Source: an uncultured Clostridia bacterium
Lineage (GTDB): Bacteria > Bacillota > Clostridia > UBA1381 > UMGS1253
NCBI GenBank assembly: GCA_934456295.1
Contig: CAKSHB010000002.1
Location: 12,513-76,512 of the forward strand
Reading direction: 5' to 3'
Length of the DNA: 64,000 nt
Below the pieces are notes generated by a model. The model did not search any database. It was given only the letters and a program-made list of their open reading frames with translations, and was not told where the DNA came from. Positions within the stretch are counted from its first letter, which is position 1; the number at the start of each line of letters is the position of its first letter. The translations under genes were made by a program, and so were the position numbers. Below, piece after piece: positions 8,707-56,037 of this stretch.

Positions 8707-8746
8707 GTGAAAAAGGATTTCTGTCTTGCACAAAGGAGGCTTTTTT

Positions 8747-10984
8747 GTGAGTAAAGGACTAAAAATATTTCTTAAGCTGTTTTTGGGGGCATTTCTTGTC
8801 GGAGCTTTGCTGGTTGCGGCGCTTGTAATTGCAGGCTGCTTCGGCTTTTTCGGCATGGATAAGGACTTTGATGTGAACGCTCTTGATTTAAACTTTACAT
8901 CTGTTATTTATTACGTAGATGATAACGGAGAGGCTCATGAGCTTGAACGTCTTTATAAATCCCAAAACAGAGTGTGGGCAGATATAAGCAAAATACCGAA
9001 GCATTTGCAGGACGCATTTGTGGCTATTGAAGATGAACGCTTTTATAACCATAACGGCGTAGACCTTCCGCGTACCATTAAGGCTACCGCTACCTATATT
9101 TTTCAGGGCGGAAGCTCTTTCGGCGGCTCTACGATAACGCAGCAGCTTGTAAAAAATATTACGAATGATAAAGATGTGCGACCCGACCGTAAAATACGCG
9201 AGATGTGGCGCGCTATGGAGATTGAGCGGAAATATTCAAAAGAGCAAATTCTTGAACTGTACCTTAACACGATATACCTTGCGAATAACTGTAACGGTGT
9301 GCAGGCGGCGGCAAACAAATATTTCGGCAAAGACGTGAGCGAGCTTTCGCTTGCGGAATGTGCCTCAATTGCGGGAATTACCCAGTATCCGTCAAAATAT
9401 GACCCGCTTGCAAATCCTGACAGCAATATAGAAAAACAGCGAGTTGTTCTGAAGAAAATGCTTGAACTTGAAAAAATTTCGCAGGAGGAGTATGACGCTG
9501 CGGTTGCCGAAAAGCTTGCATTTTCCGACCATGCGCTGAAAACAGACGGACATGTTCAGTCATATTTCATAGACCAGCTCATAAATGACCTTATTGCGGA
9601 TTTTCAGAAGAAAAAGGGATATTCTGCCGAATTTGCAGAAAAAACCATATACAACAGCGGTCTGAAAATATATGCCACAATAGACCCGACTGTTCAGAAG
9701 GCAATGGAAAATGTTTATGAAAATACAGCAAACTTCCCCGGCATGTCGGGCAAGACAACACCGCAGTCATCAATGGTGGTGCTTGATCCGCACACAGGCG
9801 GCATAAAGGGGATTGTCGGCGGCATCGGGAAAAAGAGCGGCGACAGAATACTTAACCGTGCGTCACAGACATACCGCCAGCCCGGTTCTACAATAAAACC
9901 GCTCGCAGTGTATGCGCCGGCAATCGAGCAGGGAAAGCTTATGCCTTCAACAATCGTTGAGGACGCACCTATAGACATAAACGGATGGAAACCGACAAAC
10001 TATTACAGCGGCTACAAAGGCAAGGTTACTGCGCGTACTGCTCTGAAGGAGTCGATGAATACACCTGCGGTACGCGTACTGCAAGATGTCGGCGTTGACT
10101 ATTCGTATGATTTTCTTACAAAAAAACTCGGGTTTACCTCGCTTGTTAGCGGCGAAACGCGAAACGGAAACAGATATTCGGACAAAAACCTCAGTTCCCT
10201 TGCTCTCGGCGGTCTTACGGACGGCATGAGCGCGACACAGATGGCTGCGGCATATGCAACTTTTGCAAACAACGGTTTATATAACAAGCCTCATTCGTAT
10301 ACAAGAGTTGTAAACAGTTCGGGAAAAATCGTCCTCGAAAATAACGATGAGCCGAGCGTGGCAATGAGCGAATCAACGGCATATCTGACAAATACAATGC
10401 TTCAGAGCGTTATAAAGAACGGTACGGGTACTGCGGCAAAGCTTGCAAGCAATATGCCTGCCGGAGGAAAAACCGGTACGACTGATGAACAGAATGACAG
10501 ATGGTTTGCCGGATTTACATCGTATTATGTCGGCGTTGTTTGGTACGGATATGACCAGCCGAAGTCGCTGGAGTTTCTGACATATCATCCGTGCATGCCG
10601 ATATGGAAAAAAGTCATGGATGCAATTCACACAAATCTGCCGGTTAAGGATTTTATCATGCCCAATACCGTGGAAACGGCGAAGGTATGCTCTGTTACGG
10701 GCAAGCTTGCTTCGGCCGGATGCCCGACTGCGGACGAATATTTCAAGGTCGGGAAAAAGCCGTCGTCATACTGTTCGGGACACGGAGGAACTCAGCCGGC
10801 ACCTGAGATAAAGGAAAGTCCAAATCCCTCGTCGGAGCCGACTTCGACTCCTTCAACAGCCGCTCCCGAAAATCCGGCGGCGCCAAATCCGACATCAACG
10901 CCTAACACAAAACCTACGGCAGTACCTATTCCGACGCATACGCCGACACCCGGTAAGGGTGACGATGTTATTGTAATTGAGTAA
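8747..10984 (+). CDS. class A penicillin-binding protein (PBP1A; transglycosylase/transpeptidase) with Pro/Thr-rich C-terminal tail
   Basis: GT51 motifs (EDERFYNHNGVD, GGSTITQQL, RKIRE), transpeptidase motifs (STIKP, SMN, KTGTT) and an N-terminal TM helix. Start placed at GTG 8747, 7 nt after AAAGGAGG; the ORF is open from 8726. Confidence 0.92.
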   Translation: MSKGLKIFLKLFLGAFLVGALLVAALVIAGCFGFFGMDKDFDVNALDLNFTSVIYYVDDNGEAHELERLYKSQNRVWADISKIPKHLQDAFVAIEDERFYNHNGVDLPRTIKATATYIFQGGSSFGGSTITQQLVKNITNDKDVRPDRKIREMWRAMEIERKYSKEQILELYLNTIYLANNCNGVQAAANKYFGKDVSELSLAECASIAGITQYPSKYDPLANPDSNIEKQRVVLKKMLELEKISQEEYDAAVAEKLAFSDHALKTDGHVQSYFIDQLINDLIADFQKKKGYSAEFAEKTIYNSGLKIYATIDPTVQKAMENVYENTANFPGMSGKTTPQSSMVVLDPHTGGIKGIVGGIGKKSGDRILNRASQTYRQPGSTIKPLAVYAPAIEQGKLMPSTIVEDAPIDINGWKPTNYYSGYKGKVTARTALKESMNTPAVRVLQDVGVDYSYDFLTKKLGFTSLVSGETRNGNRYSDKNLSSLALGGLTDGMSATQMAAAYATFANNGLYNKPHSYTRVVNSSGKIVLENNDEPSVAMSESTAYLTNTMLQSVIKNGTGTAAKLASNMPAGGKTGTTDEQNDRWFAGFTSYYVGVVWYGYDQPKSLEFLTYHPCMPIWKKVMDAIHTNLPVKDFIMPNTVETAKVCSVTGKLASAGCPTADEYFKVGKKPSSYCSGHGGTQPAPEIKESPNPSSEPTSTPSTAAPENPAAPNPTSTPNTKPTAVPIPTHTPTPGKGDDVIVIE

Positions 10985-11010
10985 TAAAACAAATTTATCT
11001 TTTGTTTTTC

Positions 11011-11039
11011 TTGTAATGTGCGGACAAATAGTGTATAAT
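11011..11039 (+). promoter_or_regulatory. sigma-A-like promoter for the CrtO-like/GT2 pair
   Basis: TTGTAA (11011-11016), 17 nt, TATAAT (11034-11039). Confidence 0.45.
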
Positions 11040-11075
11040 TAATACAATTGCTTTAAAACAACATAAGATGAAACG

Positions 11076-11612
11076 GTGGATACGATGATAATCGATTTTG
11101 CTGTAAAGTTTGTGTGGAACGGACTGATTGCACTTATAATAGGCGTTTCAAGCACAATCATAGGAAATTTTATACCGCGCACATGGGTGCGATGCGACCG
11201 TTTTCCGTTTAAAGAATATCGGTTTGAGAAAAACGGAAAGCTGTATGACATGTTCGGTATCGAAAGATGGAAGGGAAAGCTTCCGGACATAAGTGAATAT
11301 ATAAAAAGTGTTTTTCCGAAAAAGGTAACCGGAGATCTGATGAAAGAGGGTTATTTTGAGCGGTTTGCAAAGGAAACATGCATATCGGAACTAATTCATT
11401 TTGTGCTCATATGTATATCTCCGCTGTATCTTTTGTTTAACTGGGATATACACTGGGGTATTGCGGTAATGTTCATTGATATAATGGTGAACATACCGTT
11501 TATAATGGTTCAGCGTTATAACCGTCCGCGGCTTTTGCGTATAGCGCAAAGAAGCAGTAAGCTTCATAATACACATATTATGGAGAAAACGGCTGACGGA
11601 ACAGCTGATTAA
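11076..11612 (+). CDS. CrtO-like membrane protein (glycosyl-4,4'-diaponeurosporenoate acyltransferase family)
   Basis: 178 aa, polytopic. It matches the S. aureus CrtO sequence as I recall it: FEKNGKLY..ERWKGKLPD, ELIHF and the near-identical VQRYNRPRL block. ATG 11085 is an alternative start. Confidence 0.65.
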   Translation: MDTMIIDFAVKFVWNGLIALIIGVSSTIIGNFIPRTWVRCDRFPFKEYRFEKNGKLYDMFGIERWKGKLPDISEYIKSVFPKKVTGDLMKEGYFERFAKETCISELIHFVLICISPLYLLFNWDIHWGIAVMFIDIMVNIPFIMVQRYNRPRLLRIAQRSSKLHNTHIMEKTADGTAD

Positions 11613-11651
11613 CGGCTGCAAACTATTCAGGAAAGGCTTGGTCTTTGGCGA

Positions 11652-12914
11652 ATGCAGATTTTATATACGGTAATATATATATTAGGCATTATATTGATGG
11701 TCTGTTTAAATGCCTATGGGTTATATTATTTTGTGACAGCGCTCAATGCATACAGAAAAATTCCAAAAATACCGGAGAGCGGTGAAAAGAAACGGTTTGC
11801 GGTTATAATACCGGCAAGAAATGAGGGCGGTATTATCAGCGGACTTATTGACTCTTTAAATGAACAGAATTATCCTCGGGACAGATTTGACATTATTGTT
11901 GTGCCGAATAACTGCACTGATAACACGGAGAAAGTTGCCCGTGAGCGCGGAGCAAAAATTATGGAGTGCAAAAGGCATGTTAAGTCAAAAGGGGAGGTTC
12001 TCTCCGAAATTTTTGACAGAATGACGAAAGATGAAGCTGAAAAGTACGATGCTGTATTAATTTTTGATGCCGATAACCTCGTGCATCCTGATTTTATATC
12101 GAAGATGAATGACGCCCTTGTAAGCGGAGCAATGGTTGCACAGGGATACCGTGACAGTAAAAATCCGTCCGATACATGGATATCGGGCTGTCACAGTGTA
12201 TATTATTATATAGTAAACGGCTTTTTCAATAAAGCGAGAATGGCGCTCGGTTGGTCTGCGGCGCTTAACGGAACCGGTTTTATGATAAGCATGGAGGTTC
12301 TCAGAAATCATGAGTTCAGGACATATTCGATGACTGAGGATATAGAGTACAGCTCGATTGTTATTTCGCAGTATAAGGAAAGAATTGTGTGGGTGCCGGA
12401 GGCAATAACCTATGATGAGCAGCCGCTTTTGTTTTCGGAATCGGTGACACAAAGACGCAGATGGACGGTGGGCACGGTACAGTGCTTTAAAAGGTATGCC
12501 GCCTCATTGCTGAAAAACACATTTTTGGATAAAAGTGCGTCATGTTTTGATATGTTTGTGCTTTACAGCGCGCCGTATATGCAGATTGTGGGACTTGTGC
12601 CGCTTATAATGTCGGTTTTCAGCTTTATGCACATGATGATTTTAAGTATTGCGGAGAGCTATCTCTTTTTGTTTCTCGGTGCAACTGTTGCATACGCTGT
12701 GCTGGCATATCTGGCAACGATGGTTGCGGCATATCTTGTGCTGAAGCTTGAAGGCAAGGATATACGCAAGCATATAAAAGCCATATTCGGATTTGGACTG
12801 TTTTTGCTGAGCTGGCTTCCGATTGGCATATGGGCGCTTATAAAGCCGGATTGCAAATGGCGCGAAATAAAGCATACCAGAAGTGTTGATTTGGAGGAGC
12901 TTATAAATCAGTAG
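11652..12914 (+). CDS. membrane-embedded processive family-2 glycosyltransferase (cellulose/PNAG/chitin-synthase-like)
   Basis: IIPARNE, NCTDNT, FDADN (DxD), TED (MTEDIEYS) and QxxRW (QRRRW) motifs. One N-terminal TM helix and a C-terminal TM bundle. Confidence 0.85.
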   Translation: MQILYTVIYILGIILMVCLNAYGLYYFVTALNAYRKIPKIPESGEKKRFAVIIPARNEGGIISGLIDSLNEQNYPRDRFDIIVVPNNCTDNTEKVARERGAKIMECKRHVKSKGEVLSEIFDRMTKDEAEKYDAVLIFDADNLVHPDFISKMNDALVSGAMVAQGYRDSKNPSDTWISGCHSVYYYIVNGFFNKARMALGWSAALNGTGFMISMEVLRNHEFRTYSMTEDIEYSSIVISQYKERIVWVPEAITYDEQPLLFSESVTQRRRWTVGTVQCFKRYAASLLKNTFLDKSASCFDMFVLYSAPYMQIVGLVPLIMSVFSFMHMMILSIAESYLFLFLGATVAYAVLAYLATMVAAYLVLKLEGKDIRKHIKAIFGFGLFLLSWLPIGIWALIKPDCKWREIKHTRSVDLEELINQ

Positions 12915-12984
12915 TTATTTGGCGTGCGAAGGCAAGATACAGTGCAGCGGATTGAAAAATATTTGAAAAAAAGCAAAAAATGTA

Positions 12985-13013
12985 TTGCAATGTAAATATT
13001 TATGTGATATAAT
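12985..13013 (+). promoter_or_regulatory. strong sigma-A-like promoter (extended -10) upstream of rimP operon leader
   Basis: TTGCAA (12985-12990), 17 nt, TATAAT (13008-13013), preceded by TGA (TGnTATAAT). Confidence 0.5.
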
Positions 13014-13041
13014 AAAAAAAGTTATGGAAGATACTTATTGT

Positions 13042-13078
13042 GAAAGAGTGGGAAATGTCCCACTCTTTCATCTTTGTT
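13042..13078 (+). terminator. leader hairpin / intrinsic-terminator-like element upstream of rimP-nusA-infB
   Basis: Perfect 11-bp stem GAAAGAGTGGG/CCCACTCTTTC with a 6-nt loop, followed by the T-rich ATCTTTGTT. Confidence 0.55.
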
Positions 13079-13147
13079 GACACGAAATTGCTTTTTGAAT
13101 ACCATGTATAACACAAAATATTAAATATTATTATGATATAAAAAGAG

Positions 13148-13618
13148 GTGACAATATTGTCAAAAACGGAACAGCTTGCATATGAGCTTGCACTGCCTTT
13201 TGCAGAGCAGATTGGCTGTGAGGTAATTGAGGCCGAATATAAAAAAGAGGGCGGAGAATATTACCTTCGGATATATCTTGACAGGGAGGACGGCTCGGTA
13301 AGCATAGACGACTGTGAAACAGTGTCGAGAAAGCTTGAGACAGAGCTTGACAGGATTGACCCGATTAAAGAGGCATATTACCTTGAGGTATGTTCGCCCG
13401 GAATTGACCGTGCGCTGAAAAGGGAAAAGGATTTTGTGCGTTTTACGGGACATGACGTAGATGTGAAGTTTTTTGCGCCGCATGACGGAAGAAAAGAGCT
13501 TTGCGGAAAGCTTGCGTCATATGATAACGGTATCGTAACGGTTGAGGAGGACAACGGGACAAAAACGGTATTTGACGTAAAGGATACGGCATATATAAAA
13601 TTAGCCGTAAAATTTTAA
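13148..13618 (+). CDS. rimP: ribosome maturation factor RimP
   Basis: Size, position ahead of nusA, and motifs (YLRIYLD, LEVCSPGIDRALK). TTG 13157, 6 nt after AAGAGGTG, is the more likely start. Confidence 0.9.
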   Translation: MTILSKTEQLAYELALPFAEQIGCEVIEAEYKKEGGEYYLRIYLDREDGSVSIDDCETVSRKLETELDRIDPIKEAYYLEVCSPGIDRALKREKDFVRFTGHDVDVKFFAPHDGRKELCGKLASYDNGIVTVEEDNGTKTVFDVKDTAYIKLAVKF

Positions 13619-54612: not shown

Positions 54613-55077
54613 TCAGCCAAATATTGTGCATATATGCAATGCAACTGCAACCGCAATACCAAGTATAGCGCCTGCGATTACTTCAAACGGCGTATGTCCC
54701 AGAAGCTCCTTGAGTCTTTCGCCCTGAATTTCGGGCGATTCATCATTCCAATGTTCGACAATCTGGTTCAAAATAGAAGCCTGTTTTCCGGCAGCACGTC
54801 TGACACCTGCGGCATCATACATAACAATAAGCGCCAAAACAACGCATACTGCAAACATTGCGCTGTCAAATCCGCAATCAAAACCAATCATGACAGCCAA
54901 TGAGGTTACAAACGATGAATGTGAACTGGGCATGCCGCCCGAACCGACAAAACGGTGAAAATCAAATCTTTTTTCGGTTATCAGTACAAATATAACCTTC
55001 AAACTTTGCGCTATAAACCATGAGAGTATCGCTGCCCACAATACTTGGTTATGAAACAGTTCATAAAAAAATAACAT
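54613..55077 (-). CDS. divergent PAP2-family membrane protein (YuiD-like)
   Basis: GGMPSSHSSFV and YDAAGVRRAAGKQA motifs; 4-5 TM helices. Confidence 0.8.
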   Translation of the reverse strand: MLFFYELFHNQVLWAAILSWFIAQSLKVIFVLITEKRFDFHRFVGSGGMPSSHSSFVTSLAVMIGFDCGFDSAMFAVCVVLALIVMYDAAGVRRAAGKQASILNQIVEHWNDESPEIQGERLKELLGHTPFEVIAGAILGIAVAVALHICTIFG

Positions 55078-55143
55078 TTTATAAAGTTCTCCTCTGCGTT
55101 TAATTGCTTTTATGCTTTATTTGCGTAAAATTTCCCAATTAAT

Positions 55144-56037
55144 TTAATTGCTTCTTTTAAGCAGATAGTCTGTCAGACTGAGCAAAAATTCTGACTTTGT
55201 ACCAAAAGAAGCAATGGCATCTTTTGCCTTATTTGTATGCTCCAAAAGAAGTTCTTTTGCCCTATCTATGCCGTAAATTGAAACATATGTATTCTTGTGT
55301 GCCTCCAAATCTCCGCCGACAGGCTTTCCGAGCTTACTGCTCTCGCCTTCAACATCAAGAATATCATCTTTTATCTGAAAGGCAAGCCCGAGATTTACAG
55401 CGTAATCTTCAAGCGTCTTTATTTGACTGCTGTCTGACCCTGCAATTATAGCGCCGCATACGGCAGCGGCACGAATGAGAGCGCTCGTCTTTTTTTCTTG
55501 CAAAGTCCTAAGTATGTCGCTGCTTATACTGCGGTTTTCGCTCAGTATGTCAATTACCTGTCCGCCTATCATGCCGCCCACTCCGGAGCATTCTGCCATA
55601 TATGCCGAGGCTTTCAATGCTTTAACCGTGTCATCACAAGGCGATGATAAAATCAGTTCAAAAGCGTAGTTTAAAAGACCGTCGCCGGCAAGTATAGCCA
55701 TAGCTTCACCAAACACAATGTGGTTTGTTTTTTTACCTCTACGAAGCGGCGAATTGTCCATAGCCGGCAAATCGTCATGTATAAGGGAGTATGTATGTAT
55801 CATTTCCAATGCGCATGCATACGGAATAACATCTTCTTTTTCTCCGCCGAGCATTTCACAGACTGACAGCATGATAACAGGACGAATTCTTTTTCCGCCG
55901 GCAAAAATGCTGTAACGCATTGCCTCGGATATTTCCTTCGGTGTATCGCTGCGGCCGGTCAAATATTTGTGCAAATATTCATCTATAATATTGATTTTTG
56001 ATGTAAATTCTTCCTTAAAGGTCATTCTTATCATCAT
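55144..56037 (-). CDS. ispA: polyprenyl (farnesyl/geranylgeranyl) diphosphate synthase
   Basis: First and second Asp-rich motifs (LIHDDLPAMDN, FQIKDDILD). Confidence 0.9.
   Translation of the reverse strand: MMIRMTFKEEFTSKINIIDEYLHKYLTGRSDTPKEISEAMRYSIFAGGKRIRPVIMLSVCEMLGGEKEDVIPYACALEMIHTYSLIHDDLPAMDNSPLRRGKKTNHIVFGEAMAILAGDGLLNYAFELILSSPCDDTVKALKASAYMAECSGVGGMIGGQVIDILSENRSISSDILRTLQEKKTSALIRAAAVCGAIIAGSDSSQIKTLEDYAVNLGLAFQIKDDILDVEGESSKLGKPVGGDLEAHKNTYVSIYGIDRAKELLLEHTNKAKDAIASFGTKSEFLLSLTDYLLKRSN

Follow-up and report, generated by a model that had tools for sequence, protein, structure and literature searches.

We analysed a pair of adjacent genes in a 64,000-nucleotide stretch of DNA (hereafter the window) from an uncultured Clostridia bacterium, contig CAKSHB010000002.1, positions 12,513 to 76,512 of the forward strand. 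The first gene encodes a small membrane protein of the CrtO family and the second a family 2 glycosyltransferase (GT2). The pair is flanked by the gene of a class A penicillin-binding protein (PBP1A, 8726..10984) and by the rimP-nusA-ylxR-L7Ae-infB-rbfA operon, which begins at 13148. The following features were located between these flanks.

11076..11612, plus strand: gene 1, small membrane protein of the CrtO family (PF18927), a putative sugar O-acyltransferase
11652..12914, plus strand: gene 2, membrane-integrated GT2 of the QxxRW (synthase-like) class, 420 aa
11011..11039, plus strand: sigma-70-like promoter candidate TTGTAA-17-TATAAT from the promoter scan, 37 nt 5' of the gene 1 reading frame
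13040..13071, plus strand: candidate terminator hairpin from the terminator scan, GC-rich, 14 bp and a T-run, 126 nt past the gene 2 stop

An earlier reading of this DNA (the original prediction) had described a two-gene unit inserted between PBP1A and the rimP operon. The unit itself was borne out, both open reading frames (ORFs) being present on the plus strand, 40 nt apart, and conserved as a unit in relatives. In three of these (L001, L091 and L092) a CrtO gene is followed by a GT2 gene whose product is 71%, 59% and 52% identical to gene 2, respectively, in a neighbourhood that includes Pyr_redox, amidohydrolase and PBP1A genes, with rimP too in L001 and L091. Because the pair holds the same place in all three, the word "inserted" found no support. 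The GC content of the pair was slightly lower than that of the flanks and similar to that of rimP, and this composition, together with the conserved synteny, ruled out a recent insertion.

Gene 1 had been assigned to the CrtO family from three short sequence blocks, with a search against PF18927 proposed as a check. We found that gene 1 matched this Pfam profile with 105 bits (E 4e-30; gathering cut-off 27.3 bits) over positions 5-123 of 123, nearly the full profile, confirming the assignment. NCBIfam contained no model for it. The blocks FEK.GK (here FEKNGK, 11223-11240), ELIH (11388-11399) and VQRYNRPRL (11508-11534) were all found, and they overlap invariant columns in an alignment of 23 diverse family members, in which the invariant residues were E51, G54, Y57, W65, P70, E100, E105, H108, N139 and Q146-R-Y-N-R150. 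The candidate catalytic residues of the family were invariant whatever the type of partner gene. The ORF gives 178 aa when read from GTG 11076 and 175 aa from ATG 11085; the ATG is the more likely start, since a putative ribosome-binding site (GGTGG, 11075-11079) precedes it and since 175 aa is the length of a 99%-identical database protein (P0001).

The AlphaFold2 model of gene 1 (pLDDT, the predicted local distance difference test score, 89) contained three long transmembrane (TM) helices at residues 2-32, 93-121 and 125-173, and hydropathy analysis placed TM1 at 3-35 and a helical hairpin at 101-147. By both measures the protein has the architecture of its family, a three-helix membrane protein of ~160-180 aa. 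The loop of 65 residues between TM1 and the hairpin (36-100) carries 15 lysines or arginines and the C-terminal tail (148-178) six, so that both are predicted to be cytoplasmic by the positive-inside rule. A cytoplasmic tail is also expected because in natural fusions of the family it runs into a nucleotide-sugar-dependent GT-B domain, which is necessarily cytoplasmic. The invariant residues would then cluster at the cytoplasmic membrane interface, the side on which lipid-linked sugars and glycolipid head groups are built, rather than the side of extruded polymers. Comparison of the model with solved structures gave no significant match (best E 1.2), and the fold is thus silent on the acyl donor.

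We then considered gene 2, which had been described as a multi-TM GT2 with the DxD, TED and QRRRW hallmarks of processive synthases. The Pfam models PF13641 (85 bits), PF13632 and PF00535 matched the protein, and the motifs were located at D139-x-D141 (12066-12074), T228-E229-D230 (12333-12341) and Q267RRRW271 (12450-12464). These residues were invariant in 45 homologues, save for the variable third residue of QRxRW, and QRxRW was present in 100 of the 100 family members examined. Hydropathy and the AlphaFold2 model (pLDDT 91) indicated one N-terminal and three to four C-terminal TM helices. Foldseek against the PDB returned a hyaluronan synthase (8smn, E 1e-15, TM-score 0.69) and BcsA (4p00, E 2e-14), and the model superposed over its full length on the hyaluronan synthases of Xenopus and a Chlorella virus and on BcsA. 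Gene 2 therefore resembles the processive GT2 synthases (hyaluronan synthase, BcsA, PgaC/IcaA, NodC, chitin synthase) in its GT-A fold with DxD, TED and QxxRW and in its TM layout, but differs from them in its low identity to solved structures (~15%), in NCBIfam scores below the cut-offs and in having no accessory subunits or cyclic di-GMP module.

The curated models did not place gene 2 in a characterized family. It fell below every NCBIfam equivalog cut-off (PgaC/IcaA 49.8 versus 422 bits, CelA 23 versus 699, NodC 18 versus 550), with partial matches to PgaC/IcaA, CelA and exosortase-associated exopolysaccharide glycosyltransferases. The best model was that of Myxococcus xanthus EpsU (NF041865), which scored 129 bits over residues 16-324, the cut-off being 700; EpsU functions within a Wzx/Wzy pathway, but no genes of such a pathway were identified in the window. 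A tblastn search of plasmids with gene 2 yielded only generic "glycosyltransferase family 2" annotations among the matches. The D,D,D,QxxRW signature is also found in lipid glycosyltransferases that make no polymer, such as the cyanobacterial monoglucosyl-diacylglycerol synthase (GT2), ceramide glucosyltransferase and Agrobacterium Pgt (both GT21). Matches to the GT21 model PF13506 were weak in several homologues and in gene 2 itself, which differs from the GT21 enzymes in reaching only 14 bits, below the cut-off. The motifs and the hyaluronan-synthase-like fold do not prove that gene 2 is processive. Of the synthase-dependent system that had been proposed, the motifs and the fold thus held, while no equivalog match was obtained and no accessory or export gene was identified in the window.

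The genomic company of the CrtO family was surveyed by scanning one genome per species, which gave at least 554 loci with CrtO relatives. The best 80 of these were analysed, and the coupled partner of each CrtO-like gene was classified with purpose-built hidden Markov models. Almost all 80 came from uncultured Clostridia, the closest being uncultured Clostridiales (UMGS1253) and Candidatus Aphodoplasma. The partners, among them synthases of the monogalactosyldiacylglycerol (MGDG) type, were distributed as follows.

MGDG_synth/GT28 (UgtP/MGDG-synthase type): 54 of 80 loci, same strand and adjacent, upstream of CrtO in four
GT2 family of gene 2: 11 of 80 loci, same strand and adjacent
PAP2 lipid phosphatase: 5 of 80 loci, same strand and adjacent
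None of MGDG_synth, GT2 or PAP2: 10 of 80 loci

The stop and start codons of CrtO and partner often overlapped. All GT28 neighbours tested (53 of 53) matched PF06925, and their best NCBIfam model was the diglucosyl-diacylglycerol synthase UgtP. Other lipid genes beside CrtO encoded a diacylglycerol (DAG) kinase (L038), a DegV/FakB fatty-acid-binding protein (L020) and a PlsC-type acyltransferase (L067), and fusions of MGDG synthase with DAG kinase (DAGK_cat + YegS_C, ~683 aa) were found next to CrtO at L070:10438-12489, L074:10462-12516 and L079:6250-8301. The contig of L074 (CAVGWF010000080.1) is labelled Escherichia coli "cleanbin" and carries Clostridia-type CrtO and MGDG-synthase–DAG-kinase genes; it is probably a mislabelled or contaminated bin.

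Fusions were sought at greater depth with an exhaustive profile search of 1.84 billion representatives, which returned 2,773 CrtO members at E≤1e-3 and 1,347 at E≤1e-10. Twelve of the top 150 representatives were 524-583 aa long, and the six that were scanned (P0187, P0192, P0194, P0222, P0243 and P0316) were all fusions of an N-terminal CrtO with a C-terminal MGDG_synth domain. The same 150 included two fusions of a CDP-alcohol phosphatidyltransferase with CrtO (P0284 and P0285) and no CrtO–GT2 fusion. A CrtO–HD domain fusion was also seen (P0266). A distant member (P0062) lay in a seemingly complete C30 carotenoid cluster (L100:3553-10934), which served as a positive control for carotenoid context; its genes encode a MerR/B12-binding regulator, two amine oxidases, a DUF2141 protein, a 360-aa CrtQ-like GT2, CrtO and an aldehyde dehydrogenase. 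Glycosyltransferases of three kinds thus partner the CrtO family; two of the kinds have known relatives, and in both cases it is a membrane lipid that receives the sugar. Collectively, the systematic coupling and fusion of CrtO with glycerolipid and glycolipid enzymes strongly supported, at the level of sequence, that the family in Clostridia is embedded in DAG and glycolipid metabolism and has a non-carotenoid role, as had been proposed.

The pairing of CrtO with the GT2 family was found to be conserved in its own right. The two genes lay on the same strand in 17 divergent loci, separated by 1-82 nt or overlapping by 1-20 nt, and this operon-like linkage persisted down to ~32% CrtO identity. 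GT2-paired CrtO genes formed one broad clade in a neighbour-joining tree, and the paired loci fell into matching sub-clades in the CrtO and GT2 neighbour-joining trees, indicating that the pair is an old, co-inherited module. No third gene was common to the paired loci in general: ATP-binding cassette (ABC) exporters occurred in 4 of 11, a PHP-like ORF in two, a LytR-CpsA-Psr (LCP) gene in one and an amidase gene in one. The PHP-like ORF, of ~290 aa, overlaps the stop of the paired GT2 gene at L036:11784-12653 and L061:11807-12691 only; it had no Pfam match, and its HxH…DH pattern recalls PHP-type phosphoesterases.

Beyond the pair, gene 2 belongs to a large orphan GT2 family of the Bacillota with more than 2,000 matches. 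Homologues at 40-46% identity were mostly solo. Of the 62 metagenome loci with sufficient flanking sequence, 2 had a CrtO gene upstream, and a conserved partner for polysaccharide modification or export did not emerge from them. The solo genes adjoined unrelated genes. Small ORFs beside them were tested as divergent CrtO genes and proved not to be CrtO relatives. The stand-alone enzymes fit an autonomous lipid glycosyltransferase with an optional modifier. By sequence and fold the family is "synthase-like", and by context it looks like a membrane enzyme that acts autonomously, at times beside an exporter; both views are compatible with the addition of one, a few or many sugars.

Two side observations concern these solo genes. 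In Acetobacterium and Eubacteriaceae a conserved single-TM protein of 70-86 aa, with the motif …KWWL.LWS.LLWP.GL.MLW…NELPRT…, is encoded upstream of the GT2 gene (L008:7569-7790, L096:4503-4763 and L114:163-372), and L008 and L096 also carry a couple of MsbA-type ABC exporter genes 5' of it. The short protein could be an accessory subunit akin to IcaD/PgaD, working with an exporter. In Oscillospiraceae bacterium PP1C4 a gene for a DedA/VTT-domain membrane protein (L093:8277-8915) lies 17 nt past a solo GT2 gene (45% identity). The DedA/VTT family has been linked to lipid and polyprenyl-phosphate flipping.

Taking these comparisons together, we hold with moderate confidence that the pair is a membrane-lipid module making a fatty-acylated glycolipid, and not a pigment or a classic exopolysaccharide. 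Gene 2 would act at the cytoplasmic face, using a nucleotide sugar to add one or a few sugars to a membrane lipid acceptor, most plausibly DAG, and would stand in for the UgtP/MGDG-synthase-type enzyme of most other Clostridia. Gene 1 would then esterify a fatty acyl chain to a hydroxyl of the sugar head group. The resulting acyl-glycosyl lipid, a glycolipid with three chains, would be destined for the cytoplasmic membrane or the envelope. What we infer in this scheme is the topology, the acyl donor, the acceptor lipid and the identity and number of the sugars. The glycolipid module is favoured by the positional equivalence of gene 2 with UgtP-type synthases, by the fusions and lipid-enzyme neighbours of CrtO, by the shared invariant residues and by the predicted cytoplasmic topology. 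The positional argument is that the GT2 occupies the CrtO-adjacent slot in 11 of the 80 loci as MGDG_synth does in 54, an analogy and not a proof of activity.

The original prediction had left the product as an acylated glycan or glycolipid. The glycolipid is the better option, since the UgtP/MGDG-synthase type holds the equivalent CrtO-adjacent position in about two thirds of species, and the glycan was weakened as no equivalog match was obtained and no accessory or export gene was identified in the window. Our pair shares with the CrtO and UgtP/MGDG-synthase pairs and fusions of other Clostridia its family, invariant residues, CrtO-first order (in most loci), tight coupling and host class; it differs in the partner fold, a membrane GT-A GT2 versus a GT-B GT28, and in the separate CrtO clades. 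The likeness to CrtQ/CrtO of the Staphylococcus aureus crtOPQMN genes, in which a glycosyltransferase gene also lies beside a PF18927 membrane protein, would by analogy extend to the order of events, a membrane lipid being first glycosylated and its sugar then fatty-acylated. In Staphylococcus, CrtO acylates the sugar of glucosyl-diaponeurosporenoate. GT2 and GT28 enzymes provide alternative routes to glycosyl-diacylglycerol in cyanobacteria and plants, respectively (PMC3276260), and the cyanobacterial monoglucosyl-diacylglycerol synthase, a GT2 membrane enzyme that takes the place of a GT28, sets a precedent for the function proposed for gene 2 (PMC3276260). Glycolipids make up ~50% of the polar lipids in Clostridioides difficile (PMC11898633).

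Several observations weigh against a glycolipid product. Polymer synthases are the nearest relatives of gene 2 both in sequence (BcsA, E about 4e-10) and in structure (Foldseek matches to hyaluronan synthases and BcsA). Pfam detected no kinship with glycolipid synthases of the GT28 (MGDG_synth) or GT4 type, and a phmmer search with a UgtP-like protein gave no match in the 64-kb window. The tryptophan of QRxRW is classically the binding site of the acceptor sugar, so that its invariance suggests at least a disaccharide or oligosaccharide product. CrtO proteins with a GT2 partner make up a clade of their own and may therefore act on a different substrate from the majority, whose partner is an MGDG synthase. 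Wall-polymer-type neighbours occurred at some paired loci, namely LCP (L036) and Amidase_3 (L072), and MsbA-type ABC exporters lay upstream in four of the 11 (L036, L061, L066 and L071). In a single case (L091:8461-10632) a polysaccharide lyase family 8 (PL8) gene lies between the GT2 gene and rimP; this enzyme, of hyaluronate/chondroitin/xanthan type, could hint at a glycosaminoglycan-like product or could serve unrelated host-glycan foraging. Finally, the acyltransferase activity of CrtO reportedly rests on Staphylococcus genetics and heterologous reconstitution, and we know of no in vitro enzymology behind it.

Much of the same evidence bears on a minimal synthase-dependent exopolysaccharide system, in which a processive gene 2 would polymerize and translocate a beta-glycan and the CrtO-like protein would O-acylate the polymer or a lipid primer. 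It is favoured by the signature motifs, by a fold that matches hyaluronan synthases (TM-score 0.69) and BcsA along the entire protein, and by the partial NCBIfam matches to PgaC/IcaA, CelA and the exosortase-associated enzymes; single-protein synthases have precedents in HasA and pneumococcal Cps3S. It would also accommodate the LCP, amidase, ABC-exporter or PL8-lyase neighbours at some loci and the one solo homologue that adjoins a GGDEF-EAL gene. However, the equivalog scores remained far from the cut-offs (PgaC/IcaA 50 versus 422 bits, CelA 23 versus 699), and no IcaD/PgaD, BcsB, PilZ or deacetylase-type partner was identified in the window, nor was one conserved in relatives. CrtO partners elsewhere are lipid enzymes, and the conserved CrtO residues, predicted to be cytoplasmic, would lie on the wrong side for an extruded polymer. 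To our knowledge, polymers are O-acylated by proteins of the MBOAT or AT3 type, which have extracytoplasmic partners and act on the outer side. We consider this system unlikely, though better placed than the other alternatives.

A related and rather unlikely version retains a processive gene 2 and lets the CrtO-like protein O-acylate the nascent chain, giving a lipo-oligosaccharide or lipid-anchored glycan that needs no DAG or polyprenol primer. If true, gut Clostridia would have a new, minimal way of making an envelope lipoglycan, parallel to NodC/NodA. More broadly, on this reading PF18927 would be the enzyme family, long without an assignment, behind the acyl-sugar (three-chain) glycolipids reported from several Gram-positives and mollicutes. 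Quite unlikely, in our view, is a Nod-factor-like lipo-oligosaccharide, for which gene 2 would make a short free or primer-bound oligosaccharide and the CrtO-like protein would add its sole fatty chain, the product being a sugar-ester glycolipid or a short-glycan anchor without DAG. The size and topology of gene 2 are NodC/IcaA-like, QRxRW is invariant, the acylation of a sugar hydroxyl is CrtO chemistry, and MsbA-type ABC exporters occur upstream in four paired loci and beside the Acetobacterium solo homologues. The NodC match is weak, however, at 18 bits against a cut-off of 550, and the family-wide association of CrtO is with DAG-based enzymes.

A role of the pair in a staphyloxanthin-like carotenoid pathway, with the other genes elsewhere in the genome, was found to be very improbable. 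The Pfam family takes its name from the staphyloxanthin enzyme, and the L100 cluster demonstrates that genuine carotenoid clusters with a CrtO member exist; gene 1 and the CrtO encoded there share 41% identity over 119 aa. The original prediction had noted no crtM/N/P-like genes nearby, and this was upheld: when the 58 non-overlapping ORFs of the window were read and ten ambiguous ones were scanned with Pfam, no squalene/phytoene-synthase gene and no CrtN/CrtP-type amine-oxidase gene was identified, the sole isoprenoid gene being a polyprenyl synthase in an xseA/xseB/nusB context. Carotenoid genes were also not seen in the annotated relatives L001, L091 and L092. Orthology of gene 2 with CrtQ was tested and rejected, since only the N-terminal nucleotide-binding region aligned with the CrtQ-like GT2 of L100 (31% over 98 aa, E 4e-8) and the best NCBIfam families of the two differ; gene 2 is a QRRRW synthase-like protein of 420 aa, whereas the 360-aa CrtQ-like protein belongs to another GT2 subfamily. 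The hosts are uncultured, anaerobic gut Clostridia, in which the family neighbours are glycerolipid enzymes. As neither the carotenoid gene context nor a CrtQ-type partner was found, the pair appears not to be part of a staphyloxanthin pathway. Chance adjacency of two functionally unrelated genes would agree with the lack of a CrtO neighbour beside most GT2 homologues at 40-46% identity, but is highly improbable given that 17 divergent loci have the two genes side by side on one strand, closely spaced or overlapping, and that the CrtO and GT2 trees match in their sub-clades.

What matters more than the single locus is that in Clostridia the CrtO family as a whole is linked to enzymes of glycerolipid and glycolipid metabolism. 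PF18927 is annotated everywhere as a staphyloxanthin enzyme, and this link corrects a widespread annotation; the best 80 CrtO loci are nearly all from Clostridia, anaerobes in which carotenoid synthesis is not expected. In the literature searched, no paper contained PF18927 or tied it to non-carotenoid lipids, "diaponeurosporenoate acyltransferase" appeared only in carotenoid/Staphylococcus and annotation-list contexts, and searches on acylated glycolipids surfaced only plant acyl-MGDG and unrelated lipidomics. Nor did this literature yield a bacterial enzyme for the acylation of sugar head groups, a step for which our results nominate PF18927. Many gut Clostridia are predicted to make fatty-acylated glycolipids, potential immune ligands and determinants of membrane stress. 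The pair adds a second, unrelated class of glycosyltransferase, a QxxRW GT2 with no characterized close relative, to the partners of CrtO, and the pairing offers a handle on the function of the large orphan Bacillota family.

With respect to transcription, the pair had been credited with a TTGTAA-17-TATAAT promoter of its own. The element is present and had the top score in the promoter scan of the region, but it is to be read as a consensus match only, since 20 promoter-like sites were found in this AT-rich region against 8.4 expected. An Rfam scan of 10900-13250 gave no family at gathering score and nothing credible, the hairpin at 13040-13071 included. This hairpin plausibly ends the transcript of the pair, or may alternatively be a leader element of rimP. 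A promoter-like TTGCAA-17-TATAAT with an extended -10 TG lies at 12985-13013, between gene 2 and rimP, and a TTGACA-17-TACCAT lies at 13077-13105, 3' of the hairpin and before rimP. The elements of 12985-13105 could be a terminator of the pair followed by a rimP promoter, or a short leader or attenuator.

Elsewhere in the window, a DUF212 "divergent PAP2" membrane protein (54613-55077, minus strand) is encoded beside a polyprenyl (farnesyl) diphosphate synthase (55144-56037, minus strand). It is the only other lipid-phosphatase-like gene of the window. The block at 54613-56037 apparently belongs with xseB/xseA/nusB, these neighbours being named from their ORF translations, and is unrelated to the pair.

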